From NCBI GenBank assembly GCA_031254335.1, contig JAIRUP010000003.1, positions 5,257-69,256 of the forward strand: a DNA stretch of 64,000 nucleotides. Direction: 5' to 3'. This document shows, piece after piece, positions 9,772-64,000 of the stretch. The translations under genes and the position numbers were made by a program. The stretch comes from Rickettsiales bacterium (GTDB taxonomy: Bacteria; Pseudomonadota; Alphaproteobacteria; Rs-D84). Below the pieces are notes generated by a model. The model did not search any database, was not told where the DNA came from, and saw only the letters and a list, made by a program, of their open reading frames with translations. Each line of letters begins with the position of its first letter. The first letter of the stretch is position 1.

Positions 9772-9871
9772 AATTTCCCCTTTCATTCCATGCGTATTTG
9801 CATTATATTTATTCAGAAATAATAATGCAAATAGTTATTACCTGGATTCCAGCTTTCGCTGGAATGACGGG

Positions 9872-14955: not shown

Positions 14956-15140
14956 GGACAAAAAATAAGCGGACAAAAAACATGGCGGACTTTTCCGTTC
15001 GCCGGGTCAAATCACCCACTACCTTCGCAAACCCGACGCGCCGCGGACCGCCAAGTCCAGACGGCGGTCGGGTTTGCTTGGTATTGCGCGATTTCCCCTC
15101 GGCGTCGTGAGTCCGCCGATGTTTTTTGAGTTATTTACCT

Positions 15141-15198
15141 GCTAACGCAGGATTTATTACTGGATGCCAGCCTTCGCTGGCATGACGGCGGGGGAGCT
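15141..15198. repeat. B-family repeat, extended form (ttacctgctaacgcaggatttattactggatGCCAGCcttcGCTGGCatgacggcgg)
   Basis: A near-identical 55-bp copy lies at 21444..21500; shorter B copies sit at 9043, 9843, 20943, 23871, 27363, 29945, 36470, 41955, 45745 and 54672. Confidence 0.85.
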
Positions 15199-15267
15199 GG
15201 AATGACTGTGGAGGTCGGGCTTGACCCGAGAATCCCAGTATATTATAATCATAAAAAAAGGAACTCC

Positions 15268-16358: not shown

Positions 16359-16402
16359 ATTACCTAGATGGTCGGGTCGGAGCCCGAACATGACAAGATG
16401 TT

Positions 16403-20612: not shown

Positions 20613-20980
20613 AAAAAATCCAAGTTCGGTATTTCAAAATCGGTCTATATTTCCGATTAACTGCGAAAAACCGCCCGGCGCGGACACCTCAGTCCAGACG
20701 CCGGGCGGTTTTTCTTGTTCCTCGAAAATCTACCCTCGATTTTGCGACCGAACTACGGATTTTTTAGTTTATTAAATTATCCTCGGTGTCGCGACCCGGC
20801 TAATGTTTTTTGAGTTTATTAAATTATCCATCGAAATTGCGTTTCCGCTAAGGATTTTTTAGCTTTATTAAGCGGCGGTGGCCCGCACGCTTTGCGGCCG
20901 AGATTCTCCGGTCAAGCCGGGGAATGACAATTGATTTTTTACAATTTGAGATGCCGAGCTTCCTCGGCATGACAAAAGGA
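20612..20980. repeat. Composite intergenic repeat mosaic (D-family terminator element with a tandem sub-repeat, then an A and a B element)
   Basis: The D core aaaaaccgcccggcgcggac...gtccagacgccgggcggtttttcttgttcctcgaaaatct...tcgattttgcgacc recurs at 2699, 8840, 14950, 27148, 34540, 37430, 56140 and 58712; it is followed here by gccgagattctccggtcaagccggggaatgacaa (A) and atgccgagcttcctcggcatgaca (B). Confidence 0.85.
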
Positions 20981-21006
20981 AAAACCCGGCTTTCGCCGGG
21001 TTTTTT
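20981..21006. terminator. Bidirectional hairpin terminator serving the minus-strand FKBP gene
   Basis: cccggc-tttc-gccggg flanked by an A-run and a T-run. Confidence 0.6.
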
Positions 21007-21008
21007 AT

Positions 21009-21338
21009 TTATTTCACTTGTTTCAAGGATACTTTGAATGTTGCTGGTTTGCCCGCAAGCTCCGGATAATAATTCGCGGGAAAAGTTATATTTATATTCT
21101 TCGTATCCCCGGGGCGCATGCCCACGATTTGCGATTCGAACCCCGGCACAAACGCGTTGCTGCCAAGCATAAGCGGATACGATTCGCCCCGCCCGCCCGC
21201 GAATTCCTGGCCGTTCATCGAGCCCACGAAGTCGATAATAACCGTGTCGCCCATTTGCGCAGGGCGAGCTTCGCTGTCGCTGCACGCGAACAGCGCCGCG
21301 GTCATACCGATTATTCCGAATGCTTTCAATTTCTTCAT
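21009..21338 (-). CDS. FKBP-type peptidyl-prolyl cis-trans isomerase lipoprotein
   Basis: Lipobox LFACS; FKBP domain GDTVIIDFVGSMNGQEFAGG...LGSNAFVPGFESQIVGMRPGD. Confidence 0.75.
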   Translation of the reverse strand: MKKLKAFGIIGMTAALFACSDSEARPAQMGDTVIIDFVGSMNGQEFAGGRGESYPLMLGSNAFVPGFESQIVGMRPGDTKNINITFPANYYPELAGKPATFKVSLKQVK

Positions 21339-21586
21339 GCGCGTTTCTCCTTTCCTTTTCCTTCGGGTTCATTATGCAATTTTATGAGGGGGCGGGGCAA
21401 GGGAAAAAGGAAGAAGGGCGGAGTCACCAAAGGCGACGGATTATTACCTGCTAACGCAGGATTTATTACTGGATTCCAGCTTTCGCTGGCATGACGGCGG
21501 AGAGAAGGTTCGCTTTTGCGGCTGGTCGGGTTCGAAACTTACAAATGCGCAAATTAAAAATGGTCCAGAAGGACCATTTTCTAATT

Positions 21587-21663: not shown

Positions 21664-21712
21664 AAGTTTTTTGCCGAGATTCCCCGGTCAAGCCGGGGAA
21701 TGACAATGCGGA

Positions 21713-22503: not shown

Positions 22504-23847
22504 ATGGAGAGAATGGGGAAAATTTTTGGTTTTATGATGGGATTCGCTTTACTGGCGGATGTAATACCGGCTTACGCCGGAAAGACCACCCCGCCGCTTC
22601 GCGGCACCCCTCCACAGGAGGGGAACTTAGATAATTGTGCGGGCATGACCGAGCTTCCGGGGAAGATTACCGCGGCCGACGCCGTCGAACTCGGGCTTTG
22701 CCGCAACAACGGCACACGCGCCGCCTATGAATCCGTCCGCGCCGCAAAATTCCAGAAATACCAGGGCTATTCCAGCTATCTGCCGTCCGTCAACGCCGAG
22801 GGCCGCCGCCAATGGCGGAGCGACGAATATTTCGGCATACAAAACAATCCCACATCCACCGCGGGACTTACCGCAAGCTGGCTTTTGTTCGACTTCGGCA
22901 AGCGAGAGTCCGACCTTGGCGCCGCAATCGCCGCCTGGAACGCCGCCGGATTCGATTACGATTCGACCATTCAGACCTTCGTCTACGACATCATCAGCGC
23001 GTATTACACCGCCCTTATGGCCGCCGCGGACGAGAAGGTCAACCGCGACCTGCTTAAAGTCGCGGAGCATTCCTTCAATACCGCCGACAAAAAGTTCAAG
23101 GCCGGCGTCGTCCCGAAAGCCGACCGCCTGAAAGCCGAGACCCAGCTTGCCCAAAAGCGCGTCGACCTGCAAAAGAGCGAGGGCGCGACCAAAATCGCAA
23201 AAGGCCGCCTGCTGAACATGATGTCGTTCGAGGCCTCGCTTGACATCAAGCTCGACGACACCACGCCCGAACCCGAACTTGAAGCGCGCGACATCGAGGG
23301 CCTTATCGAGACCGCGAAGAACCTGCGCCCGGATTTGCGCGCCGCGCGCGAGAATGTGAACTCCGCCGATTACAAGATGTATGCTTCATATCTTAAAAAC
23401 CTGCCAAGCGTTTCCGCCAGCGCGAACCAGGATTACGATGTCGACAACGACCTGAAATCTTCCAGCATTTCAATCCGCGTGTCCATGCCGCTGTTCGCCG
23501 GATTCTCCAACTTCAACGCGACCCGCGCAGCGCGCGCGCAGCGCGACCAGTCCGAATTCCGCGAGCGCTCGCTTTCCCGTTCGGTAGAGCGCGATGTGTG
23601 GGACGCTTTCCAGAATTACAACACCGCTTTGGCCGTGCTTGAATCCACGCGCTCGCTGCTTTCCAGCGCGCGCGAGTCCGAGCGCGTCGTTTCGGGAATG
23701 TATAATGTCGGGCGAAGCACCATGCTTGACTGGCTTACCGCGCAATCCGATTTGGCGTCCGCCGAACGGCAGGCCGTTTATGCCAGATACGATTTAATCA
23801 TCAAGAAGCACGCGCTTGCGCTGGCGATTGGCGAGGTCGAGAGATGA
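22504..23847 (+). CDS. tolC: TolC-family outer membrane efflux channel
   Basis: Signal peptide; two TolC-like repeat halves (coiled-coil and beta regions); first gene of an efflux operon. The region 22590..22650 looks like an inserted repeat and shares a motif with 49425..49455. Confidence 0.75.
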   Translation: MERMGKIFGFMMGFALLADVIPAYAGKTTPPLRGTPPQEGNLDNCAGMTELPGKITAADAVELGLCRNNGTRAAYESVRAAKFQKYQGYSSYLPSVNAEGRRQWRSDEYFGIQNNPTSTAGLTASWLLFDFGKRESDLGAAIAAWNAAGFDYDSTIQTFVYDIISAYYTALMAAADEKVNRDLLKVAEHSFNTADKKFKAGVVPKADRLKAETQLAQKRVDLQKSEGATKIAKGRLLNMMSFEASLDIKLDDTTPEPELEARDIEGLIETAKNLRPDLRAARENVNSADYKMYASYLKNLPSVSASANQDYDVDNDLKSSSISIRVSMPLFAGFSNFNATRAARAQRDQSEFRERSLSRSVERDVWDAFQNYNTALAVLESTRSLLSSARESERVVSGMYNVGRSTMLDWLTAQSDLASAERQAVYARYDLIIKKHALALAIGEVER

Positions 23848-25148
23848 AGAAGAAAGTTAAAAAAGGAAATTTACAAAATGAGATGCCGACCTCCGTCGGC
23901 ATGACGGCGGGGGGAGGCTCTGCCGTTATGGAGAAGCCGAAGAAAAGGTTTCAGGTTAAGATGAAGTGGGTGGTGGGCGCGGCGTTGGTTTTGGCCGCGA
24001 TTGTCGGGTATTCCCTGTGGCCCGCGAAGCCCAAGGACGAGGCCGCCAAATGGGTGAGCGTTCCCGTGTCATTCGGCCGCATTGTTCAAGTCGTAACCGC
24101 AACCGGCGAAATCACCCCAGTCAACACCATCAATGTCGGTTCCCAAGTTTCCGGAATCATCGAGCGCATTTTCGTCGACTATAACGATGTCGTTCAGAAA
24201 GACCAGATTCTTCTTGAACTGGACAAGTCCGCCTTGCAGGCCTCGCTTGACGAGGCGGTCGCCCGCGTCAAGCGCGCACAGACGCAGCGCGACCTGGCCA
24301 AGGCCGATTACGACCGCGACCGCAAACTTTATTCCGACGGATTCATCGCACGCGCAGAACTCGACAAAAGCAAGGCCAACTGGGAATCGCTTGTGCAGGA
24401 CTATAACTCCGCCAAGTCCCAGCACGAGCGCGCCGAAGTCAATCTTGGATACGCCACAATCCGTTCGCCCGTGTCCGGCACCATCATCTCGCGCAAGGTC
24501 GACGAGGGCCAGACCGTTTCCGCCAGCTTGCAGACCCCGGACCTTTTCATAGTCGCCGAGGACCTGTCCAAGATGCAGATTGCGACCAGCATTTCCGAGG
24601 CCGACATCGGCGTCATAAAACAAGGCCAAAAAGTTTCCTTTACCGTCGACGCTTATCCCGCCCAATCGTTCGAGGGATTCGTCCGCCAGGTGCGCTTGTC
24701 CCCAAGCACCGCCCAGAATGTCGTCGTCTACACCGTCATAATCGATGTCGACAATTCCAGCCTTGAACTCATGCCCGGCATGACCGCCTTCGTAACCATC
24801 ACCGTTTCAGAAAAGGACGATGTTTGGAAGGCCGCGAATTCCGCGTTCCTTGTGCGCGACCTGGGCCGCATTTCCGACGACGACCGCGTGCAGACCGGCG
24901 AACTTACCGCCAAAGACACACTTGCCGTTTTGCGCGATGGAAAGGTCATTCTTATTCCTTATAAAAAAGGCATGGTAACCAACATCGAAACCGAAATCGT
25001 CGCCGACGGCCTGCAAAAGGGCGACAGGATTATTACGGGCAAGGTCGGGCAGGCCGCGGCGAACTCGAAAGGCGGCGGAATGGGCGGAGGCGGCGGCAGC
25101 GGAGGCGGAGGAGGAGGTGGTTTTGGCAGCAGGAGCGGGATGAGGTAG
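23844..25148 (+). CDS. macA: HlyD/MacA-family periplasmic adaptor (membrane fusion protein) with a Gly-rich C-terminal tail
   Basis: N-terminal TM; biotinyl/lipoyl-like and beta-barrel MFP regions; the C-terminus is GGGMGGGGGSGGGGGGGFGSRSGMR. A B-family repeat lies in-frame near the N-terminus (23871..23908), so the true start may be at 23929. Confidence 0.8.
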   Translation: MKKKVKKGNLQNEMPTSVGMTAGGGSAVMEKPKKRFQVKMKWVVGAALVLAAIVGYSLWPAKPKDEAAKWVSVPVSFGRIVQVVTATGEITPVNTINVGSQVSGIIERIFVDYNDVVQKDQILLELDKSALQASLDEAVARVKRAQTQRDLAKADYDRDRKLYSDGFIARAELDKSKANWESLVQDYNSAKSQHERAEVNLGYATIRSPVSGTIISRKVDEGQTVSASLQTPDLFIVAEDLSKMQIATSISEADIGVIKQGQKVSFTVDAYPAQSFEGFVRQVRLSPSTAQNVVVYTVIIDVDNSSLELMPGMTAFVTITVSEKDDVWKAANSAFLVRDLGRISDDDRVQTGELTAKDTLAVLRDGKVILIPYKKGMVTNIETEIVADGLQKGDRIITGKVGQAAANSKGGGMGGGGGSGGGGGGGFGSRSGMR

Positions 25149-27344: not shown

Positions 27345-27395
27345 GGGAACAGAACAATCTCTTATTCCGGCCTTCGCCGGAATGACAAAGGAAGA

Positions 27396-29786
27396 ATGAA
27401 GGTATTAAATTCTAGATTTTGGCTGGTTTCCGCGTGTGCGCTGGCGTTGGCTTTGCCCGCCGCGTCCGAACCCATCATGTTCTATGCAGAGGAAGAGGAA
27501 ATATACGATGAGATACCCGGTCAAGCCGGGTATGACAATGGTGCGGCGGGAATGACAAATGAAAATGAGGCGAGGCCGTCGGTGGTTGTGCCGGGCGGAG
27601 CGGGCGCGCAACGCGCCGGGGCCGTCATCCCAAGCGTCAAGCAAAACCAGGGCGCGCGCGGAAGCCAAGTCGTCAGCCGCCAGCCCAATTTCGCCCCCAC
27701 CGGCCCGCAGGGCCGCAATGTTCAGAACAGAAATATTCAAGGACGCAGCGCCGTGCCGATGGCCGTTCAACAACGAGGCACAGTTCAACAGCGCAGCGCG
27801 GCTCCCGCTCGCGGAACCGTTCAGGCACCGCGCGCGACTGCCCCTCGCGCCGTCGGGACCCGCGGTTCCAGCCAGCAGGGACGCGGAGCCGTTCAATCGG
27901 GAACGCAGCTTGTAGCCGGGACTTCGCCCACCGCCGCCGCAATATCGAACGAGCCCGCCGCGCAGGCCAATCAGCCCGTCGCCGCGCGAGCCGCCCTTAC
28001 AGGCTCGCCCATAACATCTTCCCGCACTTCGGTCGCCCGCAATGCCAACGCTTCCGCCGCACAACAGCTTATCGACGAACACACCGCGCAGAGGCAAGAG
28101 CTTGAAAGCCTGAAAACCGCCCTGGACATCGCAAACGAAAGGTCCGAAATACAAATGCAAATCGACGATTCATGCCTTGCGCAATTCTACGGCTGCATGG
28201 ACGATATTTGCGCCAATGTCAACGACACTCTCGGCCGCTGCGCTTGTTCCCCCAACGCGGAAAATTACAAAGAGATGGACGACCGCCTTAAAAAGGTGAA
28301 TATCGAGCTTCAAGATGTCGTCAGAAACATTCAATACCTTGGCCTGACCACCGACGAAGTCAACAGCCTTTTCATGGAGACCGAGGCCGAACGGGCCTTG
28401 AACCAGATGTCCCCCGACATAGGCGGCGGACAAAGCACCATGCTGCGCGATTTGCTGATGGGCGTCGAGCTTCCCGACATCGCGGACATTGGAACACAGA
28501 AAACCAAAAGCCCGTTCCAAAGCAGCTTTATAGACATGGCCGATTTCGGAGATTTCGGCGACTTGTTCGGAAACACAACCAAGAAGACCTTCAACGACAT
28601 CGCGAACATGTCCGGCAAGGACCTGTATAACGCCGCCAAGCAAAAGTGCGAATTCGTCCTTAAAGAATGCCAGAAGAAGAAAGTCGATGTCGAGATGATT
28701 CAAGCCAAATACGATGTCGAAATCGGAAAGCAATGCGTTTATATCCGCGACGACCTGGACGAAAGAATCGAAACCGCCACAAACATGCTTCGCCAGGCGC
28801 GCACCATGCTTGAACGCGCCCGCTTCCAAGTCGCCCAAAACAAAAACCTGTTCGACCTTAAAGAATGCGTGCAGGAAATGGACAAGTGCATGACCGACGA
28901 TTTCGTTTGCGGTAAAAACTATGTCCGCTGCATCGACGGCACAGGACAATTCGTTTCAAGCGACGGAAAGGATGTCGTCCCCGGCGCCGACCTTATATAT
29001 ATGCAGCACACATTGTGGGGCGGAACTTCCGGTAGTGCCGATTACGCCGTGCTTGCCGGGTTGGCTACAAAAAAAGTCAATGGAAAAGAAGAAACTATTT
29101 GGCCATTCAATCCCAGCCGGTTGACAGACGGCGGCTTTGCAGTGAACCCATCAGCGGAAAAAGTCGTCCAGATATTGGCCAGTAAAATCGGGTATATAGG
29201 CAAGGATGGATACGCGGGCGCGGGATTCTGCGCCGCAGTCATGAACCAATGCCAAAGATACACGCGCAGCGGCAACGAAGCCACTACATTCGACCCGAAC
29301 AATGAAGTTGTGAAAAATTATCTGCTTCAAGCACTTCCCAAAATCCGCAGCGCCCAGGACAAGTTCATAACCGAATTCCAAGTTCAATGCGTGTCTGACC
29401 TTAAATCGTGCTATCAGAGACAGATTCAATCAATGTCCGGCGGATATTACGGAAGCGTGTCCAATATAAACTTAGCGAACTTCTCCACAATGCGCGCGGC
29501 ATGCAGCAGTATCGGTTTCTCATGCGCCTTGGCGGTGAATTCAAGCGAATTTAATTCTTCCAGTGGCTCTGGCGCGTGCCGAAGGACTCCAACCGATGCC
29601 ATCACTACGACAACGGATATAGAAAAATGTTTGAACTCGGTGTCGACGATTGCTTTATCCGGATTGATAACTTGCCCGACCGGTGCGTCGATAGAGCTTG
29701 ATAGTAGTAAAAATCCTGTAACAAACAATAATATTTGTAAATGCCAGACCGGTAACATAGACTTGACAACGAATAGTTGTAGATAA
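27396..29786 (+). CDS. Large secreted Cys-rich protein, paralog 2 (796 aa)
   Basis: Signal peptide MKVLNSRFWLVSACALALALPAAS; an acidic stretch, then Gln/Arg/Ala-rich degenerate repeats (QGRNVQNRNIQGRSA...); the motifs CxxxxxxCMDDICANVNDTLGRCACS and FVCGKNYVRCIDGTGQF align to paralog 1. Confidence 0.8.
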   Translation: MKVLNSRFWLVSACALALALPAASEPIMFYAEEEEIYDEIPGQAGYDNGAAGMTNENEARPSVVVPGGAGAQRAGAVIPSVKQNQGARGSQVVSRQPNFAPTGPQGRNVQNRNIQGRSAVPMAVQQRGTVQQRSAAPARGTVQAPRATAPRAVGTRGSSQQGRGAVQSGTQLVAGTSPTAAAISNEPAAQANQPVAARAALTGSPITSSRTSVARNANASAAQQLIDEHTAQRQELESLKTALDIANERSEIQMQIDDSCLAQFYGCMDDICANVNDTLGRCACSPNAENYKEMDDRLKKVNIELQDVVRNIQYLGLTTDEVNSLFMETEAERALNQMSPDIGGGQSTMLRDLLMGVELPDIADIGTQKTKSPFQSSFIDMADFGDFGDLFGNTTKKTFNDIANMSGKDLYNAAKQKCEFVLKECQKKKVDVEMIQAKYDVEIGKQCVYIRDDLDERIETATNMLRQARTMLERARFQVAQNKNLFDLKECVQEMDKCMTDDFVCGKNYVRCIDGTGQFVSSDGKDVVPGADLIYMQHTLWGGTSGSADYAVLAGLATKKVNGKEETIWPFNPSRLTDGGFAVNPSAEKVVQILASKIGYIGKDGYAGAGFCAAVMNQCQRYTRSGNEATTFDPNNEVVKNYLLQALPKIRSAQDKFITEFQVQCVSDLKSCYQRQIQSMSGGYYGSVSNINLANFSTMRAACSSIGFSCALAVNSSEFNSSSGSGACRRTPTDAITTTTDIEKCLNSVSTIALSGLITCPTGASIELDSSKNPVTNNNICKCQTGNIDLTTNSCR

Positions 29787-29837: not shown

Positions 29838-30074
29838 AAGTCGCCCCGAGGGGGGCGGTTTTTTTATTCCCACCCCGGCCCGCCTTCGTCTACGACTACG
29901 GCGCGGCGACTCCTCCCAAGAGGGGAATTTAATAAGGATTTATACAATGGACCCCGGCCTTCGCCGGGGTGACTGGTTGGGAAAGGCTCTGCGTAGGGGC
30001 GATGGGTTTTCGACCCCCCACCAAAAACGGCGAAGCCGTTTTTGGCTCCCCCGCATGGGGGGGAGCTAACCTTA

Positions 30075-30927: not shown

Positions 30928-32415
30928 TTAGCGCAGGGATTTTTTGATGTAATACTGCTGCGCTATGCCGAAGATGTTCGACACCGTCCAATACAACACA
31001 AGGCCAGCCGGCAGGCCCGCGAACAGGACCACAAACACCACCGGCATCCACTTCATGAAGCCCATGCCCGGCGTCGCCGCATTTGCGTTCGACGACATTT
31101 TCATTTGAAGCCACATTGTCGCGCCCATCAGAATCGGCAGAATTCCGATTGCGGGCAAGAACGAGGGCGGCGCGAAAGGCAACAGGCCGAACAGGTTCAA
31201 TATGTTCGTCGGGTCCGCCGCCGCCAAATCCCTTATCCACAGGAAACTTGAATCCCGCATTTCGACCGCGATAATCAGCGCGCGGTATAGCGCGAAGAAT
31301 ATCGGGATTTGCAGCAACATCGGCAGGCACCCCGACATCGGGCTGACCTTCGTCGTCTGATACAACCTCATCATTTCCTGTTGAAGGCGCGCGCGGTCGT
31401 CCTTATACAGCTTTTGGATTCTTTGCATTTCCGGCTGCATTTTCTGCATCGCCGCCATCGACTTATACGATTTCTTCGTAAGCGGTATCATCAGAATACG
31501 GATGATTAGGGTAAGGATAATGATTGCGAGGCCATAGTTCCCGACCAAATCGTGCAACGCCGTAAGCGACCAAAGGAAAGGCCGCGACAGGAACGAAAAC
31601 CATCCGTAGTCGATTGTTTGCGCGACGCCCGGCATCGCCGGATTCGCCGCGTTCAGGATTTTCTGCGATTTCGGCCCGGCATATATATTAAATGTAAAGT
31701 CGCTTGCCGCGTCCGCCGATATATCCGCCTGGAACCGGTCGCCGCCGATGTTCTTCATGCGGAGCGTGCGCGGACCCGGGACGCCCGAATCAATTTGCAC
31801 AAGCGTTTGCCAATACTGGTCCTCGAACCCGACGAACGAATTCGCGCCGCCGCCCCACACCGCGCTTTTATCCGATATATTTCCCCAGCTTTCGCGCTTC
31901 GTGTTTCCATCGATATTGGCGAGGCCGCCCGCGGATGTCATCAGCATCATGCTCGATTTTTTTCCGCCGTCCCTTGCGATTCTCGCGTAGGGCGCGGCGT
32001 TCCCTTTCGACTTAATCCGCACGCTTATCACATAGTCTTCCGATATTGAAATCGTCTTCGTGAATTCGCCGCCGCCGACCAGTCCGAACTCTATGAATTC
32101 GCCCGGGTTCGCCAGAAGCTCCACCGGCTTCGCGCCGTCATGATATTTCAGCAATCGGACATTCGATATGCGGTCGCCCGTTTGCGTGAGTTCGATGTTT
32201 TCGGATTTTATTTCGATTGGAGCGGACGAGGTCCCGCGGTCAAGCCGCGGGATGACATCATTATTTATTTGCGCGGGCTGCGGTTTGCTTGACGGCATGA
32301 AGAACGATATGATTAGCCAATTCAGGCCAAGGAATATTCCAAGCAGCAGCGCCAGTTCCAAGAATTTGGGTTTTGACCCCCCCGCAAGGGGGGAGTTATT
32401 TAATATTTTTACCAT
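30928..32415 (-). CDS. yidC: Membrane protein insertase YidC
   Basis: 495 aa; an N-terminal TM, a large periplasmic domain, and the conserved C-terminal 5-TM core (...LPMLLQIPIFFALY...). A truncated C-family repeat is encoded in-frame at residues about 6-14 (NSPLAGGSK). Confidence 0.9.
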   Translation of the reverse strand: MVKILNNSPLAGGSKPKFLELALLLGIFLGLNWLIISFFMPSSKPQPAQINNDVIPRLDRGTSSAPIEIKSENIELTQTGDRISNVRLLKYHDGAKPVELLANPGEFIEFGLVGGGEFTKTISISEDYVISVRIKSKGNAAPYARIARDGGKKSSMMLMTSAGGLANIDGNTKRESWGNISDKSAVWGGGANSFVGFEDQYWQTLVQIDSGVPGPRTLRMKNIGGDRFQADISADAASDFTFNIYAGPKSQKILNAANPAMPGVAQTIDYGWFSFLSRPFLWSLTALHDLVGNYGLAIIILTLIIRILMIPLTKKSYKSMAAMQKMQPEMQRIQKLYKDDRARLQQEMMRLYQTTKVSPMSGCLPMLLQIPIFFALYRALIIAVEMRDSSFLWIRDLAAADPTNILNLFGLLPFAPPSFLPAIGILPILMGATMWLQMKMSSNANAATPGMGFMKWMPVVFVVLFAGLPAGLVLYWTVSNIFGIAQQYYIKKSLR

Positions 32416-36452: not shown

Positions 36453-36492
36453 AAAATGAATTATTCAATTTGAGACGCCGACCAACGCCGGC

Positions 36493-37425
36493 ATGACGAG
36501 TCGTATGAAAAAGATATTCAAATATTTTCCGGTTTGGGTTGTTTGCGTTATCGCCCTTGGCGCGGCATTCGTATATTTCAGGCCCGCGCAGGAAATCGAA
36601 ATCGCCGCGGCTTTGGCTCCGGCGGCGACAAAGGATATTAATTACGACCTGGATGGTCGGGTCCTAGCCCACCATGACAATAATGGCGAGGTTCAGGTTG
36701 CGCGGCACGGGTTTGCCCTTGAATTCGAGGGCATAAAAGCACGCGCGCGCATCGGTCGCGTGAGAATCAATTTCATGCGCGACGGCGACAGATACGAAAC
36801 TTCCATGAGCGTTCGCGCCGCGGGAATTTTCAAGAGCGTTCTTGACGAGAAGCTATCCTTGAAATCCGCAGGCCGGATTTCAGACGGACGGATGGAGGCC
36901 GATTATTTCCTTAACAGCTCCGTCAAAGACAACGGGAAGGGGGAAGAAAAAGTCCACGACTTTACGGACGGTCCGGCATACTCTTACAACGGAACCAAGG
37001 AAGAAGTCGACGGCAAGATATACGAGCAGGCCGTCGACCCCCTTGTTATTTTGATTCTTGTCGGCAATGCCATCGGCGACGCGGGAAACTGCAATTTTTC
37101 AAGCAACTCGCTTTTGGACAAGTTGGGATTCACGGTCGAATCTTCCGACAAGGGAGACCGAAAGGACTCGGGCATAAAGTCCAAGGGCAAGCCAATCGTA
37201 GAGCGGCGGTGCGACATTACCGTCCGAAACCGCGCCGGAAAAAAGCAGAAGGCTTTCCCTTTCGACCACGAGTTCGCAAAAAAGGGCAAGAAGGCGCGGG
37301 CCGCCAAGATTCGGGTTTATTATTCCGACATCGACGGCGGAGGGATTGTTCCCGTTTATATAAAAATCATCGAGACCCCGATTGGGGATTTCGACATAAG
37401 GCTGGTGAAGATTTCGAGGTTTTGA
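36493..37425 (+). CDS. Hypothetical exported protein
   Basis: N-terminal hydrophobic segment VWVVCVIALGAAFV; Lys-rich C-terminus. The annotated ATG lies within a B-family repeat (gacgccgaccaacgccggcatgacgag), so the true start may be MKKIF at 36505. Confidence 0.5.
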   Translation: MTSRMKKIFKYFPVWVVCVIALGAAFVYFRPAQEIEIAAALAPAATKDINYDLDGRVLAHHDNNGEVQVARHGFALEFEGIKARARIGRVRINFMRDGDRYETSMSVRAAGIFKSVLDEKLSLKSAGRISDGRMEADYFLNSSVKDNGKGEEKVHDFTDGPAYSYNGTKEEVDGKIYEQAVDPLVILILVGNAIGDAGNCNFSSNSLLDKLGFTVESSDKGDRKDSGIKSKGKPIVERRCDITVRNRAGKKQKAFPFDHEFAKKGKKARAAKIRVYYSDIDGGGIVPVYIKIIETPIGDFDIRLVKISRF

Positions 37426-38932: not shown

Positions 38933-38964
38933 CTGGGTCCTCGGGTCAAGCCCGAGGATGACAA
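38933..38964. repeat. A-family palindromic repeat (ctgggtcctcgggtcaagcccgaggatgacaa)
   Basis: A-family copies (gag/gcc-(g)a(t)tcc CCGG tcaagCCGGgg(a)atgaca) at 8197, 20897, 21673, 32227, 41825, 54552, 58908 and 59284. Confidence 0.85.
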
Positions 38965-41678: not shown

Positions 41679-41868
41679 TTATTTACCTTTGTTTTTGTTG
41701 ATATATACGAAGGGTTTCCTTTTCCCCCCGGTTATGAGATTGAATTTTATCAGTCCAGAAGTCAAATGTCAAGTTTATAACAGGTTATAACAAGAGAATT
41801 GGCTGGAATCAACAGGATGAGGATGAGGTCCCGCGGTCAAGCCGCGGGATGACAATGTTATTTAAGGT

Positions 41869-43887
41869 TTGAATATGGGGGGGGAATATGGTAAAATTAG
41901 GGAAAGAGAGAATTTTAGGAGAGGGCCTATTTTTAGGAAGTTCAGCAATTTATGCGGATTCATACAATGGACCCCGGCCTTCGCCGGGGTGACGCTAGTT
42001 GTTATGTTGTCCAGTGCAATGGCGGCGCCGATTGCGGGGCCGGGTCCGGCAATCGCGGGCGGCGGCGGAAACCTTACTTCCCTTAAAGGTTCCGGCATAG
42101 TGAACGCCAACGCCTACAACAATCAAGCCATGCCTCAACGCACCGCCCATGTCGAGATGGCCGAGGCTGCCGCGGGCGCGGAAATAAACTATCGCAACTG
42201 CGAATCCATGCTGAAACGCTGCGTCGTTCCCAAGTGTTCCGCAGGCTGCACAGACAATGCCATGACGACCAGCATTATCAAGGGATGTTTATCCGCCATG
42301 TCACCCGGTTGCGAGAAATTCGACGAATTGCCGTCCGCGCTTGCCGCTGAAATAGTTTCCATGGGCGTAGCCGCCCAACAAAAAGCCGCGTCCGAGGCCG
42401 CGAGCGCGGCCGCCGCGCAGGCGCAAGCCCAGGCAAGCGCGGACACCGCCGCCATGCAGCAACAGATGGCGCAGATGCAACAGCAGATGGCCGAACAGCA
42501 GGCCCAGGCCGCCGCGGCGCAACAGAAAATGATGGAAGACATGATGGCCGCGCAACAGGCGCAGGCTCAGCAGGCCGCCGCCATGCCCGCCGCCGCGCCG
42601 GTTATGGCCGAAGTTTTGGCGCGCGACCAGGCGTCCGGCCAAATCATGTCCGAAATCGACCGCATGAACGGCGCGCTGGCTTCCCTTAAAAAAATCATGG
42701 AGACGACATTCGATTACGCCGGCTGCGATTACCGCGGCGAGAACTGCCAGCAGGTGCGCCGAGTCGCCGCCTTCCGCGAGAAGGCCAACAAGTTCTTCCA
42801 GCCCTTCGACGAAGTTATCGACCGCATTTACGATGTAATCAGCATGGGCCAGGCACTTGGCGCGGATGTCAACAATGTTTATATGCTGTTGGAGAGTTCT
42901 TGCGAAAGATGGGGGCTTTACACCAATACAAACTTCAAGCCGAATACCACAAATGTTCCGAAACAAGGCGACCTTATAAGGATTCTGAATTCCGGCGAAG
43001 AAGTTTTGAATGAATTTTCGCAGGGGCAGCAGAGGTCCGACGGCCTTATGGTCGCCTGCGCTTCGAAGAGCGCGACAAGCAATGTGGGAATGATTGCCAG
43101 GCGCCGGGCGAACGCAACCGCAATCGATACCGAGCCTTTGAGGCAGGCGCTGGCGGCCATGGATAGAAGAGAGATGAACGCAAGCAAAAGCATGGTATGG
43201 GTGCATCCGTGTTGCGGAAGCAGTACCGTAAAGACCGTTTGCAAAGAGAAGTGGGGCGACACGGACAAAAACAACCCGGGCGACGGGTCTTGCAAAGAAG
43301 TAAATCCCGAATTCACCATTTGCCCGGTGCATGCATTGAACGGACCCATGTGTTCCTCTGGGGTGCAAACGCTTTCGCTGACGGCGCCGGACGCCGAGCT
43401 TCTTGCGCGCCGCGCGAGCAATATAACCCGCGAGATGTTCCAGCAGTTCAACAGGCTGGACATCATCGCAAAGCAAATCAGAACCATTGTTCAGCAGGCC
43501 GTTCTGAACCACCAGAACCAGCAGGCGGCAGAAGCCGCCAACCCGGGCGCGAATGCCATAGATTCGGCGCTTTGTATGAGTGCGGGTGGAACTTTGGAAG
43601 TTCTTAAATGCCTTGGCAACGAGGTCGCGCAGCTTATTTCAGAAGTTCAATCAGCGAGCACCGTGTCGAATTTCAGAAAACGCTGCGATAACCTGTATGC
43701 CAGGGTTAAGAATGAAACCAGCCTTTATGCGAAGAATCAAAATAAAAATATTAAACAATGCGGAACTGATAAAGCTAGTATGCAAGAAAGCTTATATTCG
43801 TTTAGAAATGCCTTAACCGAGGCTAGTAATAGCACTGACCTTAAAAAAGATGCCACACAGTTCGTGATTCAAGCCAGTCCGCAGTAG
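41869..43887 (+). CDS. Large secreted Cys-rich protein, divergent paralog 3
   Basis: C-x6-C-x4-C module (CESMLKRCVVPKCSAGC) like paralogs 1 and 2; a long Gln/Ala-rich low-complexity tract (AQAQASADTAAMQQQMAQMQQQMAEQQAQAAAAQQ); a Cys-rich remainder. The N-terminus includes an in-frame B-family repeat (41955..41990) encoding a hydrophobic segment; the true start is uncertain. Confidence 0.65.
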   Translation: MNMGGEYGKIRERENFRRGPIFRKFSNLCGFIQWTPAFAGVTLVVMLSSAMAAPIAGPGPAIAGGGGNLTSLKGSGIVNANAYNNQAMPQRTAHVEMAEAAAGAEINYRNCESMLKRCVVPKCSAGCTDNAMTTSIIKGCLSAMSPGCEKFDELPSALAAEIVSMGVAAQQKAASEAASAAAAQAQAQASADTAAMQQQMAQMQQQMAEQQAQAAAAQQKMMEDMMAAQQAQAQQAAAMPAAAPVMAEVLARDQASGQIMSEIDRMNGALASLKKIMETTFDYAGCDYRGENCQQVRRVAAFREKANKFFQPFDEVIDRIYDVISMGQALGADVNNVYMLLESSCERWGLYTNTNFKPNTTNVPKQGDLIRILNSGEEVLNEFSQGQQRSDGLMVACASKSATSNVGMIARRRANATAIDTEPLRQALAAMDRREMNASKSMVWVHPCCGSSTVKTVCKEKWGDTDKNNPGDGSCKEVNPEFTICPVHALNGPMCSSGVQTLSLTAPDAELLARRASNITREMFQQFNRLDIIAKQIRTIVQQAVLNHQNQQAAEAANPGANAIDSALCMSAGGTLEVLKCLGNEVAQLISEVQSASTVSNFRKRCDNLYARVKNETSLYAKNQNKNIKQCGTDKASMQESLYSFRNALTEASNSTDLKKDATQFVIQASPQ

Positions 43888-44563: not shown

Positions 44564-45799
44564 ATGAGGAAGATTATCCCGGCTCTTTTTCTTTTTGCGC
44601 TTGTTCCCGCCGCCGGGTTCGCCAGGCCTTTCAATATGGACGGTATGTTCATGATTGGCACGGATGTGGGGTTAGGACATTCCGCCTTAGGGAGCGGTAT
44701 GGCGGCCGCGGCAGCGCGCGACGACACTATTAAGACAATAGACAACGCCCAAATAGAAATGGTCTTAAAAAACGCCAATGAACTGGACTTTGGGCCCGTT
44801 GAATCCCAATTGCAAGATGCTTTCGCAAAGTTGTGGGAAATTCTGCCGGAAGAGGACAAGACCTTGTGCTGGGCCGCCGACGGAGCCAAGGATACCATAA
44901 AAACCGCCTTGGACAATATAACCGCCAAAATAACCGGCGCGAGATTTCTTGCGCTGAATGTAGATGAAAAATACAAGATGGAATACTTCAAGCTGAGGGT
45001 TTCGCAAATGAAACCATGCGTCGCAAATGCGATAACAATGGCCGCAGTTCAAGCACAAGGCAGGGCGGCCGAAGAAATACTCGATATAGCCAATAATCTT
45101 TCATTCGACGAACTGAAAGAAAAGCTGAGAGTTATTCCGCGCGAAGAGAACAAGACCGTTTGCTTCATACCGTTCGGAACAGACAGGAACGATATGCAGT
45201 CCGCAATAAATGATTTGCAATATTCAATCGGCCGTTCAAGCATGTTTGCCGCAACGGACGCATTCAATAAACAGGTCAAAACCCTACATGACGCAGAGAA
45301 TTGCGGATGGTGCGGCGAGGATGGCAAGATTTGCTTCAAGGACAAAAACGACAATATCATAAACACGCATGATATGAACGAGGCGGACCGCGATTGGTTC
45401 TTGGAATCGCACAGTAGAGGATTCATAAAAGAAGAGGATTTGGAAAGATATGCGAAGCTGGCCGGAGTTGAATGGGATTCGGATGTCCTTTCCCCCGCGC
45501 CAGCCGTTGAATTGTCATATTACACCGGGGAAATGGACTCAATGTTGGAATCTCACGGCTCCGAGTGCGTGCCGATGGAATCATACTATGATTGGGATGA
45601 AAGGGTCCGCGAAAATATAGATAGGGACCAGATGGATGCCTTTCATGATTATGCGAAGACGATTATCGACAGGTTCTGCTCAGAGGAAAGGCCGGTGGTG
45701 GCGGAAGGAGAGGGCGTTGAAGAATTGGATAATGAACAGAATAGGATTCCCGCCTCCGCGGGAATGACAGATTTGGCGGCGGCGGAAGGAGAAATGTGA
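44564..45799 (+). CDS. Hypothetical secreted protein (411 aa) with an acidic C-terminus
   Basis: Signal peptide MRKIIPALFLFALVPAAGFA; several Cys; a B-family repeat is encoded in-frame near the C-terminus (RIPASAGMTD). Confidence 0.55.
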   Translation: MRKIIPALFLFALVPAAGFARPFNMDGMFMIGTDVGLGHSALGSGMAAAAARDDTIKTIDNAQIEMVLKNANELDFGPVESQLQDAFAKLWEILPEEDKTLCWAADGAKDTIKTALDNITAKITGARFLALNVDEKYKMEYFKLRVSQMKPCVANAITMAAVQAQGRAAEEILDIANNLSFDELKEKLRVIPREENKTVCFIPFGTDRNDMQSAINDLQYSIGRSSMFAATDAFNKQVKTLHDAENCGWCGEDGKICFKDKNDNIINTHDMNEADRDWFLESHSRGFIKEEDLERYAKLAGVEWDSDVLSPAPAVELSYYTGEMDSMLESHGSECVPMESYYDWDERVRENIDRDQMDAFHDYAKTIIDRFCSEERPVVAEGEGVEELDNEQNRIPASAGMTDLAAAEGEM

Positions 45800-54247: not shown

Positions 54248-55108
54248 TTATTCCTCGACCTTCAAGCCCATCTGTTTCCAAGTCGACATCATGTCGCCTT
54301 TGTTTATAATCGTGTCCGCCGTGAGTTTTAACACGGGAATGATTCGTTTTCCAGTGTTTTTGGATTCAAATTCCTCGGCTTTCTTTTTCAGAAGCCAGGC
54401 CGGCGAGATTTTTTCCGCGCCTTCGGCGAACCATTTCGGCGGCATGCCGCCGGATTCCTTTTCGTCCGCAATCCATGCGCCCGCGTCCTTGTGCTCGGCC
54501 GTTATGCGGATTCTGAATTCCGATTCGGTTATTTCAAGGTTGTCTGTCGATGAGGTCCCGTGGTCAAGTCGTGGGACGACAGAGGGGGCGGCGTTTTCCT
54601 GTTTTCCGGGCGTCGGGTCGAAAGAGGACATGGAGAATAAATCGGTTGAGTTGTCTTCGGCAACAGTTTTTGACTGGATGCCAGCCTTCGCTGGCATGAC
54701 GGCGGGGGTGGGCGTTTGCTCTGCTTCGAGGCGTTTGATTTTTATATAGGCGTTTTTCAGCTCGTCCGGCATGCTTTTTCCTATCTTGATTTCGGTATGG
54801 GTTTTTACCAAGTCTTCATGCTCGACCGGCTTGGTTTCCGCGGGCTTGGCGGGTTTCTTGAAGCCGCCCTGCTTATAAAACACGAACGACAGGACGCCGC
54901 CGATTGGCAGGCTTGCGGCCATCGAGACCAGCAGGGCCGTGCCGCGCAGGCCGTGGAATCCGTATTTCGACACCAATGCCCAATGGCGCGCGGAAAATAT
55001 ATCGAATCGGAAGGCGGCATAAAAGAAAACCACGCAAAACGCCAGCCAAACGGACCACCAGGCGGCTTGGACGGCGACTGCTTTCAATATGTTGTTTTCG
55101 GGTTTCAT
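54248..55108 (-). CDS. Hypothetical membrane protein carrying two in-frame repeat insertions
   Basis: N-terminal TMs (AAWWSVWLAFCVVFFYAAF; ALLVSMAASLPIGGVLSFVFY). A B-family repeat (54672..54705) encodes TPAVMPAKAGIQ; an A-family repeat (54552..54581) encodes VVPRLDHGTSST. Confidence 0.55.
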   Translation of the reverse strand: MKPENNILKAVAVQAAWWSVWLAFCVVFFYAAFRFDIFSARHWALVSKYGFHGLRGTALLVSMAASLPIGGVLSFVFYKQGGFKKPAKPAETKPVEHEDLVKTHTEIKIGKSMPDELKNAYIKIKRLEAEQTPTPAVMPAKAGIQSKTVAEDNSTDLFSMSSFDPTPGKQENAAPSVVPRLDHGTSSTDNLEITESEFRIRITAEHKDAGAWIADEKESGGMPPKWFAEGAEKISPAWLLKKKAEEFESKNTGKRIIPVLKLTADTIINKGDMMSTWKQMGLKVEE

Positions 55109-57616: not shown

Positions 57617-58711
57617 ATGGTTTATAAACTTATCGAGAAAAACATACTATCGGGTTCGTCCTTCGACGACTATCTCATCGTTCCGGGGTATTCCGCCGTC
57701 GTGCCTTCCGATGTTTCCACAAGCATAACGCTGCTCAATAAAAAATACGGGACGCGCCTTCAACTTCGTCTTCCGATTTTCTCGGCCGCCATGGACACCG
57801 TCAGCGAAGCGCGCATGGGAATCGCTATGTCCAAGTCCGGCGGAATCGCCGTAATCCACAAAAACATGACGCCCGAACAGCAGGCCGCGGAAGTCGAAAA
57901 AGTCAAAATAAAACGCTGCAAGGTCGCCGCCGCCACAGGCGTCGGGAAAAAGGGCGTCAAACGCGCGGGCCTTCTTATCGACGCCGGCGTCGACGCGATT
58001 GTCATCGATTCCTCGCACGGGCATTCCAAAAATGTCGGCGACACCGTCGCCGCGCTTCGCAAGAAGTTCCCGCACCTTAACATCATCGCGGGAAATGTCG
58101 CCACCGCGGAAGGCGCGCTTTTCCTTGAACAGGCCGGTGCCAGCATTGTCAAAGTCGGAATCGGCCCGGGTTCGATTTGCACGACCCGCCAGGTAACCGG
58201 ATGCGGCATTCCGCAGCTTGACGCCGTCTACGATGTCGCGCGCGCCATGGACGGCCGGGTGCCGGTAATCGCCGACGGCGGAATCAGATATTCCGGCGAC
58301 ATAACCAAGGCCCTTTCCGCGGGCGCGTCCGCCGTAATGCTTGGCTCCATGCTGGCCGGAACCGAAGAGACCCCAGGCGAGGTCATGAAAAACATGGAAG
58401 GCAAAAAATACAAGCAATACCGCGGCATGGGCTCTATCCCCGCCATGATGAAGGGCAGCGCCGACAGATACGGCCAGGGAAATATCAAAAACAGCAAGAA
58501 ACTTGTCGCAGAGGGAATCGAGGCTTTCGTTCCATATAAGGAAGAAGTTGCGAAACTTCTGTTCCAGCTTAGCGGGGGGCTGCGCGCAGGGATGGGGCTT
58601 GTCGGAGCGAAGTGCATTATGGAGCTTTGGAGCAAGGCGAAGTTCCGCCAGATTACATTCGCCAGCCGGTTGGAGAGCCTTACGCACAGCGTGCAGGAAA
58701 AGATACATTAG
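57617..58711 (+). CDS. guaB: IMP dehydrogenase-family enzyme lacking the CBS/Bateman subdomain (364 aa)
   Basis: [13 protein letters not shown]; IDSSHGHS; [11 protein letters not shown] catalytic-Cys loop; [11 protein letters not shown]; GSMLAGTEE; RGMGS. These align throughout to IMPDH, but there is no insert of about 120 aa between the IHKNM and SSHGHS regions. Confidence 0.8.
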
Positions 58712-58940
58712 ACGAAAAATCCTGAGCTGGAATTTTCGAATTCGGCTTAAAACCCCCACTACGCTTCGGGAAGCCGACACGCCGCGGACGCCTCAGTCCA
58801 GACGGCGGTCGGGTTTTCTTGGTATTGAACGATTTATCCTCGAAAACGCGAGTGGACTAATATTTTTTGAGTTATTGAGCGGCGGTTCCCGCACGCTTTG
58901 TTGCCGGGATTCCCCGGTCAAGCCGGGGAATGACAATTTA
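58712..58940. repeat. Composite intergenic repeat (D-family terminator element, a gagcggcgg...ccgcacgc linker, then an A-family element)
   Basis: The same module order as 8840..9075 and 20612..20980. Confidence 0.8.
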
Positions 58941-59219
58941 GCGGGAGGCGGGGGTGCGGCACTCGCGCAGCGCGAGGTGCCGGACATTATAATGCGGCTT
59001 GCCGTCCTTCATGAAAAACTGGCTGTCGCTGAAATACTTCTTATTCGCCATCGGGTCGCCCGTTTCAGAGCACGCTTTCCGCGCCGCAGCGGATTCTTCC
59101 GCAGGTTCCCGCGCGCTGTTCAACATGAAAACCGCCAGAGCGATTGTGCCGAATATGGCCACTATTATACGGTTCACGGATGAAACCATTTCTTTTTCTT
59201 GCTGGATTGTCATCGGCAT
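58938..59219 (-). CDS. Hypothetical small membrane protein (93 aa)
   Basis: One TM (IIVAIFGTIALAVFML); weak evidence. Confidence 0.3.
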   Translation of the reverse strand: MPMTIQQEKEMVSSVNRIIVAIFGTIALAVFMLNSAREPAEESAAARKACSETGDPMANKKYFSDSQFFMKDGKPHYNVRHLALRECRTPASR

Positions 59220-59316
59220 ATTCGCACCTCTTTTTTAATTAGGGTATAGCGCGGGGCGGGTTTTGTCAATGAGATAATGCGGCCGAGATTCCCCGGTCAA
59301 GCCGGGGAATGACAAT

Positions 59317-63078: not shown

Positions 63079-64000
63079 GCACCCTTAATAGGTCGTTTTT
63101 GAGGGCGAGGGCCATCAATGCAATCAGCACCGCCCAGCCGCCCATTATAACATAGCTTACCGCTTTCTCGTTAAGTTTGCGGCGCGTTATGCTTTCGATT
63201 GCGATTATCAGCAAATGCCCGCCGTCCAGGGCCGGTATCGGCAGCAGATTGACCACTCCCAAATTTATGCTGAGCATCGCTATCATCGAAAGCAGCGCGA
63301 ACAGGCCCGCGGCCAACGCCTCGCCCGACATTTGCGCTATCATTATAAAGCTGCCCAGCTGCTTGGAATCGCGGTCGCCCGTGAGCAGCTGTCTTATAAC
63401 CGTAAAGAGAAGCGTGGATTGCTCGGCCACTTCGCGCGTCGCGCGGGCGATGACGCCCGCGACCGTGCGTTTCTTGAATTCCGGGTTGGCGTCCGCCGCG
63501 GGCGCGATTCCCCAAGATTTATCCGCAATCAGCCGGACCGTTTCGCCGCCCGCGAATTCGATTTTCACGATAGCATTCCCCGCGCGGGTTTTAATTTTTA
63601 TTATGTCCGCAAATTCATTCACAGGTTGTCCGTAGACGGATTTGACCGTCCAGCCCGGTTTGATTCCCGCGTTATAGGCCAGCGAATTTTCCGCCACCGT
63701 TCCGATTACGGGCCGGACAATCTGCTCGGGCTTGGCCGCGAACAGGAACAGGAATATAATCCATGCCAGCACGAAGTTCATTATTACGCCCGCCGACATG
63801 ATTAGCGCGCGCTTCCAGCGGGGGATGGATTGGAGGCTGGCGGCCGAGATTCCCCGGTCGCGCTTCGCTTGCCGTGGAATGACATTTTTTTTCTTTTTGG
63901 CGGCGGTGGCGGGAGAGGCAACGGGTTTTTCGCCGTATAAATCAACATAGCCGCCGATGGGAAGCCAGCCTATGCGCCATTCAGTTCCGCGCTTGTCCGT
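63068..64000 (-). CDS. rseP: RIP metalloprotease RseP, C-terminal part; the 5' end lies beyond the window
   Basis: GWLPIGGYVDLYGE; PDZ region; C-terminal LLPIPALDGGH motif. A hybrid A/B repeat (63843..63884) is encoded in-frame (NVIPRQAKRDRGISAASLQ). Confidence 0.85.
   Translation of the reverse strand, partial: TDKRGTEWRIGWLPIGGYVDLYGEKPVASPATAAKKKKNVIPRQAKRDRGISAASLQSIPRWKRALIMSAGVIMNFVLAWIIFLFLFAAKPEQIVRPVIGTVAENSLAYNAGIKPGWTVKSVYGQPVNEFADIIKIKTRAGNAIVKIEFAGGETVRLIADKSWGIAPAADANPEFKKRTVAGVIARATREVAEQSTLLFTVIRQLLTGDRDSKQLGSFIMIAQMSGEALAAGLFALLSMIAMLSINLGVVNLLPIPALDGGHLLIIAIESITRRKLNEKAVSYVIMGGWAVLIALMALALKNDLLRVLGL

Follow-up and report, generated by a model that had tools for sequence, protein, structure and literature searches.

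The 64,000-nucleotide stretch of contig JAIRUP010000003.1 of a bacterium labelled Rickettsiales bacterium (assembly GCA_031254335.1), called the window in the following, contains next to genes for envelope proteins such as YidC, RseP, TolC and MacA an open reading frame (ORF) for a membrane protein (54248..55108), the focal gene of this analysis, in which two short hairpin-forming repeats are found in frame. Hairpin repeats of this kind, ~30-45 nt each, occur 27 times in the window, as identified by a scan for a perfect or near-perfect stem of 8-10 bp followed by ATGAC that was rerun with looser settings; eight copies are securely and three more probably or possibly located within genes, and 16 are intergenic (Table 1). 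Most likely these repeats, members of the described class of SRM elements (Ssn-related motifs), have multiplied in this lineage and a minority of them survives in frame inside genes for envelope proteins. A repeat is present at each place where the original prediction had put one (two in the focal gene and one each in macA, uvrD, rseP, ORF 41869, ORF 44564 and ORF 36493), and none of the copies listed there introduces a stop into the longest ORF; the in-frame copies in YidC, in ORF 27396 and at 36645-36683 in ORF 36493 come in addition to those.

The focal protein gives no Pfam match. Its N-terminal transmembrane region is joined to a conserved C-terminal domain by a variable linker. Residues 1-125 and those from 195 to 286 are kept in three homologs of 43-55% identity, in contrast to the linker, which varies and holds both repeats (residues 135-187 of 286). 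The intact B-type copy folds into a hairpin of -8.9 kcal/mol (z -3.0), with GATGCCAGCCTTCGCTGGCATGACG found in the ORF at 54678-54702, and the predicted peptide across the repeat junction reads ...TPTPAVMPAKAGIQSK.... In the A-type copy, G-T pairs have arisen in the stem by three C-to-T changes and the hairpin is reduced to -4.0 kcal/mol (z 0); this copy occupies the site of an FKPxxFG motif common to the three homologs, in the genes of which the SRM pattern finds no match. The window from 54679 to 56318 is matched at 100% identity by an independently assembled contig (L001, run SRR14710927) that ends inside the focal B copy; at least on that side, the junction is therefore not an artefact of assembling a metagenome-assembled genome (MAG).

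Read on the + strand, the repeat is composed of a G, a GC-rich stem of 8-10 bp enclosing a loop of 3-5 nt, and an ATGAC tail; read on the - strand, GTCAT is followed by the 8-10 bp GC-rich stem, the 3-5 nt loop, the complementary stem and a conserved C. Families A (loop tcaag) and B (loop cttc) have in common the G before the stem, the closing A-T/T-A pairs and the near-invariant ATGAC tail and differ in the stem interior. Among 25 aligned copies the G and A of GAC are invariant, the A, T and C of the tail are kept in at least 90% and 23 copies have a G in front of the hairpin on the + strand. Stem positions 3, 6, 7 and 8 show three to four types of Watson-Crick pairs each, a compensatory variation by which the hairpin itself is identified as the conserved feature. 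As single-stranded DNA, intact copies reach -8.8 to -11.2 kcal/mol with z -3 to -3.9 versus shuffles, and besides the focal copy at 54552 the decayed copies at 63846 and 22558 have weakened hairpins (-7.2 and -6.2 kcal/mol).

The class to which these elements belong has been described in Neisseria and beyond. The Neisseria Transformation Sequence (NTS), CGTCATTCCCGCGMAVGCGGGAATCYRG, has relatives in other phyla, inverted repeats of 20-50 nt that are covered by a degenerate SRM pattern, and is bound as a hairpin in single-stranded DNA by SsnA, a 94-aa single-domain GIY-YIG protein that cuts upstream on one strand only and loses activity when the palindrome is altered even though a hairpin is kept (PMC11893778). 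The published pattern, HGTCWYN(0-2)YYVSBRHN(0-5)WNVSBRGN(0-2)RNCYNB (PMC11893778), matches 14 times in the window, compared to a mean of 0.21 and a maximum of 1 in 100 Markov-1 simulations; 13 of the matches are genuine copies, all on the - strand, and the match at 40239 is probably due to chance. Copies outside the exact pattern are one or two positions off or decayed. Searches with the A consensus and with the B consensus gave 4 matches each versus 0.00 expected. The copy at 9842-9869, CGTCATTCCAGCGAAAGCTGGAATCCAG, can be placed next to the NTS directly, and the most conserved positions in the window copies, the bases 5' of the palindrome and the C directly after it, are those critical for SsnA. 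Because of the pattern matches, the enrichment and the conservation of the SsnA-critical positions, A and B, which the original prediction had regarded as two further families, are, as judged by sequence, together with a third variant D sub-families of one known class, SRM/NTS, which contains dRS3. The dRS3 pattern proper, ATTCCC-N8-GGGAAT, has a single exact copy (45746-45765, ATTCCCGCCTCCGCGGGAAT), such that the repeats as a whole are not dRS3; the A1 copies read ATTCCC-N11-GGGAAT and the remaining sub-families carry other stems, at least ten stem variants in total. As an Rfam scan of the whole window identified six tRNAs only, the hairpins do not represent a curated RNA family. Direct repeats indicative of target-site duplication, which together with terminal inverted repeats would characterise a MITE, were not found to flank copies in the window.

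Beyond the focal gene, in-frame copies are documented by comparison with homologs, among them those of the closest relatives, two MAGs equally labelled Rickettsiales bacterium, L045 (isolate Coa324_bin6, MacA 83% identical) and L007 (YidC 71% identical). In YidC, the start of which is sound since the N-terminal MVKIL is kept in homologs, the peptide across the repeat junction reads ...NDVIPRLDRGTSSAP...; in L007 a B-type SRM read as VIPAKAGIQ is present within a few codons of this site, and eight other homologs are without a repeat. The RseP copy is embedded in the loop that leads from GGYV to AGV(I)MNF, between motifs of the catalytic core, and the loop from GGYV to PRWKR comprises 40 aa compared to 29-30 aa in five relatives, ~11 aa more, those relatives being at 40-46% identity from the metagenome scan with the close relative not among them. 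The tolC copy, which the original prediction had named without position, was located as a decayed repeat; after the signal peptide, TolC has ~22 extra residues in the window, ~16 in L045 (with another repeat) and none in eight distant relatives. Right after the decayed copy, at 22607-22623, a short hairpin is present which is similar in composition to the GGGGAG-type hairpin family described below and is unmatched by the family-C consensus. ORF 27396 has a partial second repeat tail at 27543-27561, and its N-terminal ~130 aa are absent from the paralog 18064..20331.

All nine or ten repeat-carrying proteins are envelope or secreted proteins. Most intragenic copies directly follow the signal peptide or the first transmembrane segment and the others are found in an inter-domain linker or a C-terminal tail, in segments which are of variable length among orthologs. 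In-frame insertion into real genes is thus borne out by homolog comparisons for the focal protein, YidC, RseP, TolC and MacA, and the repeats are not solely artefacts of 5'-extended ORFs.

Around start codons the situation is more varied. The macA ATG at 23844 overlaps the tolC stop and an alternative ATG with GGAGG upstream is available at 23928. In distant relatives macA begins right after the tolC stop, and the window and L045 retain the ATGA overlap and a Lys-rich start. In L045 macA, two in-frame repeats are not followed by any ATG, GTG or TTG before the conserved KPKKRF, and translation through the repeats is therefore obligatory there. A reading of the window copy as a 5'-extension artefact with ATG 23928 as the start has been largely reversed by this comparison, and the window MacA probably carries a translated repeat as well.

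For uvrD, which the original prediction had included among the in-frame cases, a start at 9761 would create an overlap of 26 nt with the dnaQ-like gene, which is divergently oriented; residue 49 is the first of the helicase domain, and the ATG of the repeat is in another frame. GTG 9884 is preceded by GGAG at a distance of six nt and yields the canonical N-terminus MQDLLESLNEGQ. Because of the dnaQ overlap, the out-of-frame ATG and the properties of GTG 9884, the copy most likely lies upstream of the true start (GTG 9884 or 9872), in the promoter or leader. In the same AT-rich dnaQ-like/uvrD spacer, a perfect 12-bp inverted repeat, TATTTGCATTAT-N15-ATAATGCAAATA (9795-9833), may be an operator.

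The NCBI start of ORF 41869 (P0125, 627 aa) is a downstream ATG, 3' of the repeat, which leaves no signal peptide; in all homologs the conserved PIAGPGPAI.GGGGNLT is preceded by a signal peptide, and the NCBI start leaves seven residues in front of it. The repeat is either translated as WTPAFAGVT in the signal region or its GTGAC tail provides a GTG start. In ORF 36493, a second ATG at 36505, four codons downstream of the ATG of the repeat, gives a normal MKKIF N-terminus. Translation of the repeat stretch in ORF 41869 and of the first four codons of ORF 36493 is uncertain. As to the creation of start codons by the repeat tail, which had been suggested originally, an ATG or GTG of the repeat is indeed in frame at macA, ORF 36493 and ORF 41869 and a downstream ATG is available at all three, such that remodelling of start codons at these genes is plausible and unproven.

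Although the window is 87.8% coding, 8-11 of the 27 copies are in coding sequence (P <= 8e-9), a strong depletion. On the + strand, the TGA in aTGAc shuts one of the frames, and ..PAFAGMT.. or ..YD....D(N) is read in the remaining two; as deduced by hand from the consensus, no frame of the - strand is closed in the B type, as opposed to one in the A type. All five copies in genes of the - strand (the two focal copies, YidC, RseP and the YidC of L007), a small sample, are in the V-I/M-P frame. The in-frame state is read as survivorship, whereby stop-free, frame-preserving insertions in permissive linkers persist, and not as a property of insertion. Four ORFs that read through repeats, 15131..16057(-), 20848..21372(-), 21018..21494(+) and 58503..59183(+), were rejected as genes since two overlap the lpxD and FKBP genes and the translations look spurious (20848 and 58503 Arg-rich).

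The intergenic copies are placed asymmetrically. SRMs at 9051, 16368, 38938 and 59288 end 2-8 nt from the stop of a - strand gene and several others (27364, 41829, 36475, 9846) end ~10-40 nt from the start of a + strand gene; genes abut the ATGAC side far more tightly, with the gap on the opposite side being at least 46 nt. Many SRMs constitute the 3' module of a two-hairpin unit, in which a GC hairpin (GTCGCC..GGCGAC or CCTGCtaaGCAGG) and a spacer of 12-15 nt precede the SRM (8126-8186, 16330-16394, 38920-38962, 15135-15186 and 21444-21495; 9925-9975 in L045 and 17150-17215 in L007). The ~60-nt two-hairpin units of L045 macA and L007 murG are nearly identical.

In orientation the repeats are uniform, with ATGAC on the + strand in 27 of 27 copies irrespective of the gene strand (two-sided P about 1.5e-8), and the orientation relative to shared genes is unchanged in L007 and L045. 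Third-position GC skew, split by gene strand, identifies the + strand as C-rich with a replication component of -0.13, a hint, from 64 kb, that the GTCAT strand is the G-rich strand. Other repeat families are equally found on the + strand: the hairpin ACTCCCCCGCAAGGGGGGAGT in 10 of 10 cases (11834, 13028, 22018, 32376, 39959, 41401, 46923, 47743, 56328 and 63012), the core of a ~100-bp element in 3 of 3 (46844, 53349 and 59942) and the module TTGAGCGGCGGTGGCCCGCACGC in 2 of 2 (9005 and 20868). Co-orientation of every recognised repeat family points to a cause at the level of the chromosome, possibly related to replication. Furthermore, four protein sites, in YidC, TolC, MacA and MurG, are occupied in sister genomes by sub-families or elements that differ although their place is practically the same, and the copies at 32232, 41829 and 8201 are identical within the window. 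Site sharing and identical copies suggest that hot spots were hit recently or that copies have converted one another, and not that one ancestor diverged slowly.

How such elements come to be inside genes is most likely explained as follows. The repeats act at the level of DNA and land, or persist, mostly between genes; a short unit with two or three stop-free frames survives inside a gene where an envelope protein has a length-variable, probably unstructured segment, and each copy then adds ~10-15 residues, which read VIPAKAGIQ, VIPRLDRGTSS or IPAFAGMT according to the strand and the frame, with older copies losing the hairpin. In this organism, an Ssn-type GIY-YIG single-strand nuclease may recognise the repeats, and the strict co-orientation suggests that their spread might involve a single-stranded DNA step at the replication fork. 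Fork-coupled insertion or conversion would explain the co-orientation of the 27 SRMs and of all other repeat families. That the SRM hairpins are active single-strand elements which by such a process repeatedly hit or overwrite permissive sites and thereby remodel envelope proteins is a tentative proposal, and on the whole an unlikely one.

Several observations weigh against this interpretation or its parts. No Ssn-like GIY-YIG gene was detected in the window or in ~85 kb of the closest relatives (L002-L007, L045) by regular-expression searches and by tblastn with genuine Ssn-like probes from distant relatives; such genes are present in the more distant relatives L055, L061 and L106 (PF01541, E 4e-17). 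At least ten stems fit poorly with one nuclease as sequence-specific as the Neisseria SsnA. Orthologs at 43-83% identity provide differences in length and not clean insertions, and an allele with an empty site, which would fix the ends of the element, was not found. The in-gene case of ORF 44564 comes from the reading of the ORF itself, the protein being an orphan with no homolog among 1.84 billion representative proteins.

Single-strand transposition, as performed by IS608 and the IS200/IS605 elements, is tied to the lagging-strand template, such that strict co-orientation is to be expected. That the repeats are REP/REPIN-type elements moved by a RAYT, or targets of an IS110-type recombinase, and not partners of an Ssn nuclease would agree with the co-orientation of all 27 copies, with the lack of a local Ssn gene and with the finding that dRS3 in Neisseria is also the target of a phage recombinase (PMC11893778, introduction). 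However, a Pfam scan of ~40 main ORFs of the window retrieved no RAYT, Y1 or other transposase, the window contains no inverted pair, and the SRM/NTS pattern with its asymmetric flanks fits better than any REP consensus that could be tested, which makes such an origin improbable.

Still less probable, in our estimation, is a role of the repeat-encoded peptides as functional protein modules under selection, such as a signal for the sorting or cleavage of envelope proteins, with the intergenic copies as by-products. All hosts are envelope or secreted proteins with most copies after the signal peptide or the first transmembrane segment, the copies in - strand genes share the V-I/M-P frame, and sister genomes keep a repeat at the same YidC, TolC, MacA and MurG site, all of which speaks for such modules. 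On the other hand, the two strands give unrelated peptides (IPAFAGMT or YD..D.N versus VIPAKAGIQ), repeat orientation tracks the chromosome and not the gene, sixteen copies are intergenic, and sister genomes differ in sub-family and hence in the peptide at the same site; older copies decay as DNA as the proteins persist, and distant orthologs are without repeats. Searching the literature for PAFAGMT, VIPAKAGI and further peptides encoded by the repeats returned nothing.

There is, finally, barely any likelihood that all intragenic copies are artefacts of ORF calling with true starts downstream of every element: uvrD most likely conforms to this, the NCBI start of ORF 41869 is downstream and alternative ATGs exist at macA and ORF 36493, but the focal copies lie between two conserved parts, the RseP copy between catalytic-core motifs, the YidC (with its conserved N-terminus), TolC, ORF 27396 and ORF 36493 copies after a signal peptide or first transmembrane segment and the ORF 44564 copy C-terminally, and L045 macA has no start codon after its repeats, such that this outcome, which the original prediction had named as its refutation, is contradicted in general by the internal copies and stands for individual N-terminal cases only.

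With the multiplication of SRM elements as the preferred reading, the question of its phylogenetic extent arises. The SRM pattern has 22 matches in 1.41 Mb from 80 related genomes versus 14 in the 64-kb window, and about ten copies are present in 21 kb of L007; the repeat burst is specific to this termite-gut alphaproteobacterial lineage. Wider relatives, at 53-60% identity, are Candidatus Enterousia and other gut Alphaproteobacteria, which are also the nearest MacA and TolC relatives beyond two or three sister MAGs. The Rickettsiales label and the analogy to Rickettsia drawn from it should consequently be treated with caution. Compared to L007, a block with F420-ligase-like, IMPDH-like and mraZ genes (55185-58711; 4267-7211 in L007) is inverted relative to rseP-bamA-proS, and between mraZ and recF L007 is without a 20-kb stretch matching 34.7-55 kb of the window.

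Among known systems, the window elements resemble SRM, NTS and dRS3 in the GTCAT, the GC-rich palindrome, the conserved C, the directionality and the enrichment over shuffled sequence, equally in a symbiotic or gut-associated host and in clustering near membrane-protein genes; SRM-rich genomes, those of Wolbachia, Rickettsia and Sphingomonas among them, are enriched in symbionts (PMC11893778). In N. meningitidis 2% of NTS are inside genes (PMC11893778), in contrast to 30-40% of the window copies, which are in frame there. Neisseria has one conserved palindrome and this genome at least ten stem variants with compensatory changes, and, unlike in Ssn systems, where an ssn gene (single-domain GIY-YIG, cd10448) often has the repeats at its flanks, no such gene is seen in the 64-kb window. 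All copies are co-oriented over 64 kb, and a replication-strand bias is not mentioned in the SRM paper (PMC11893778). What goes beyond the published SRM description is thus the large share of intragenic copies, the co-orientation of all copies and the sub-family turnover at shared sites. With REP, REPIN and BIME elements the repeats share short GC-rich hairpins, many copies, a mostly extragenic location abutting gene ends and some mosaic units; they differ from REPINs by the 27 co-oriented copies without inverted pairs, the lack of a RAYT in the window, the SRM signature and a sizeable intragenic share.

RPEs of Rickettsia are described as palindromic elements of ~100-150 bp that are in frame in unrelated functional genes at tolerated positions and decay with time (Ogata et al., Science 2000 and Genome Res 2002, summarised in PMC10969869). 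By this description, the window repeats are alike in being in frame at tolerated sites (focal protein, YidC, RseP, TolC and MacA), in adding a short peptide and in decaying, and the degraded stems at 54552, 63846 and 22558 fit the age-related decay reported for RPEs. The units of ~30-45 nt in a gut alphaproteobacterium differ, again as far as that description goes, from the size and families of RPEs; the window elements behave like RPEs without thereby being RPEs.

A separate multi-hairpin element of ~100 bp, nearer to RPEs in size, is present at 59920-60011 (in frame in proS), 46822-46913 (in frame in murG) and 53304-53418, with ProRS comprising 467 aa here versus 440 aa in L007. At the same MurG site L007 has a B4-type SRM (17174-17201 in L007, TMGPGLRRGD). 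A GGGGAG-type hairpin family is equally found in frame, in yidC (32376-32396, NSPLAGG near the N-terminus) and murG (46923-46943).

Table 1. Hairpin repeats of the SRM class and the focal gene in the window, in order of position
Feature	Coordinates	Strand	Location and remarks
D-type SRM	8161-8186	-	Intergenic, paired with the A3-type SRM at 8200-8225
A3-type SRM	8200-8225	-	Intergenic
B2-type SRM	9043..9073	-	Intergenic, 2 nt beyond the dnaQ-like stop codon
B1-type SRM, intact	9842..9869	-	Divergent dnaQ-like/uvrD spacer
B1-type SRM	15160..15187	-	Intergenic, upstream of lpxD
D-type SRM	16368..16394	-	Intergenic, 8 nt past the SAICAR synthetase stop
A1-type SRM	20899-20929	-	Intergenic, downstream of the FKBP lipoprotein gene
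B2-type SRM	20943-20973	-	Intergenic, downstream of the FKBP lipoprotein gene
B1-type SRM	21469..21496	-	Intergenic, between the FKBP gene and tRNA-Arg
A1-type SRM	21675..21705	-	Intergenic, adjoins tRNA-Arg
B-type SRM, decayed	22558..22587	-	TolC; DVIPAYAGKT directly after the signal peptide
B2-type SRM, intact	23875..23905	-	macA 5' region; QNEMPTSVGMT if ATG 23844 is used
B3-type SRM	27356..27386	-	Intergenic, 10 nt upstream of the ORF 27396 start
A2-type SRM, intact	27505..27541	-	Secreted ORF 27396..29786; YDEIPGQAGYDNG after the signal peptide
B4-type SRM	29947..29974	-	Intergenic
A3-type SRM, intact	32227..32257	-	YidC, after the first transmembrane segment; VIPRLDRGTSS; hairpin -11.2 kcal/mol
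B2-type copy, degenerate	36466..36498	-	First ATG of the longest ORF (36493) is part of its ATGAC
D-type SRM, imperfect stem	36645..36683	-	DUF3108-like ORF 36493..37425; YDLDGRVLAHHDNN after the N-terminal transmembrane segment
A4-type SRM	38933..38963	-	Intergenic, 4 nt beyond the yceG/mltG-like stop codon
A3-type SRM	41825..41854	-	Intergenic, upstream of ORF 41869
B4-type SRM, intact, GTGAC tail	41961..41994	-	5' part of secreted ORF 41869/41875..43887
B3-type SRM, intact	45738..45768	-	Secreted ORF 44564..45799; RIPASAGMTD, eight codons before the stop
Focal gene	54248..55108	-	286-aa lineage-restricted membrane protein, locus tag LBH81_01145
A3-type SRM, decayed	54552..54582	-	Focal linker; VVPRLDHGTSS
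B1-type SRM, intact	54674..54701	-	Focal linker; CGTCATGCCAGCGAAGGCTGGCATCCAG on the - strand; exact SRM pattern; VMPAKAGIQ
A1-type SRM	58905..58935	-	Intergenic
A1-type SRM	59284..59314	-	Intergenic, 3 nt past the proS stop
A-type SRM, extended, decayed	63846..63885	-	RseP; NVIPRQAKRDRGISA; hairpin -7.2 kcal/mol, z -1.2

Two regions of the window stand out by their possible origin. At 7036-8839, a ParA-like gene and a 180-aa ORF have a third-position GC of 0.42 and 0.59 versus ~0.68 elsewhere, and the SRMs at 8161-8225 and 9043-9073 bracket this ParA-like region, which suggests acquired DNA. ORF 44564 (411 aa, with a signal peptide) follows a gene for an ORF6N/Rha-type phage regulator, and the two may represent a prophage remnant (43944-45799).

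The paper of 2025 on SRM and NTS elements (Nat Commun) left open the role of Ssn and its repeats outside of Neisseria and the mobility of the repeats (PMC11893778). The lineage described here is a natural experiment in this respect, with a recent burst, additions in the essential genes yidC and rseP, differences in sub-family and a full orientation bias, which argue that SRMs move or convert at the level of DNA. SRMs can contribute coding sequence, as RPEs do. In practical terms, VIPAKAGIQ, IPAFAGMT and VIPRLDRGTSS in predicted proteins flag segments derived from repeats, and calls of start codons adjoining SRMs, as in uvrD, macA, ORF 41869 and ORF 36493, need care. If the SRM hairpins were indeed active single-strand elements that repeatedly hit permissive sites, the repeats would be a built-in generator of envelope-protein variation, acting on N-termini, signal regions and start codons, and not passive junk.

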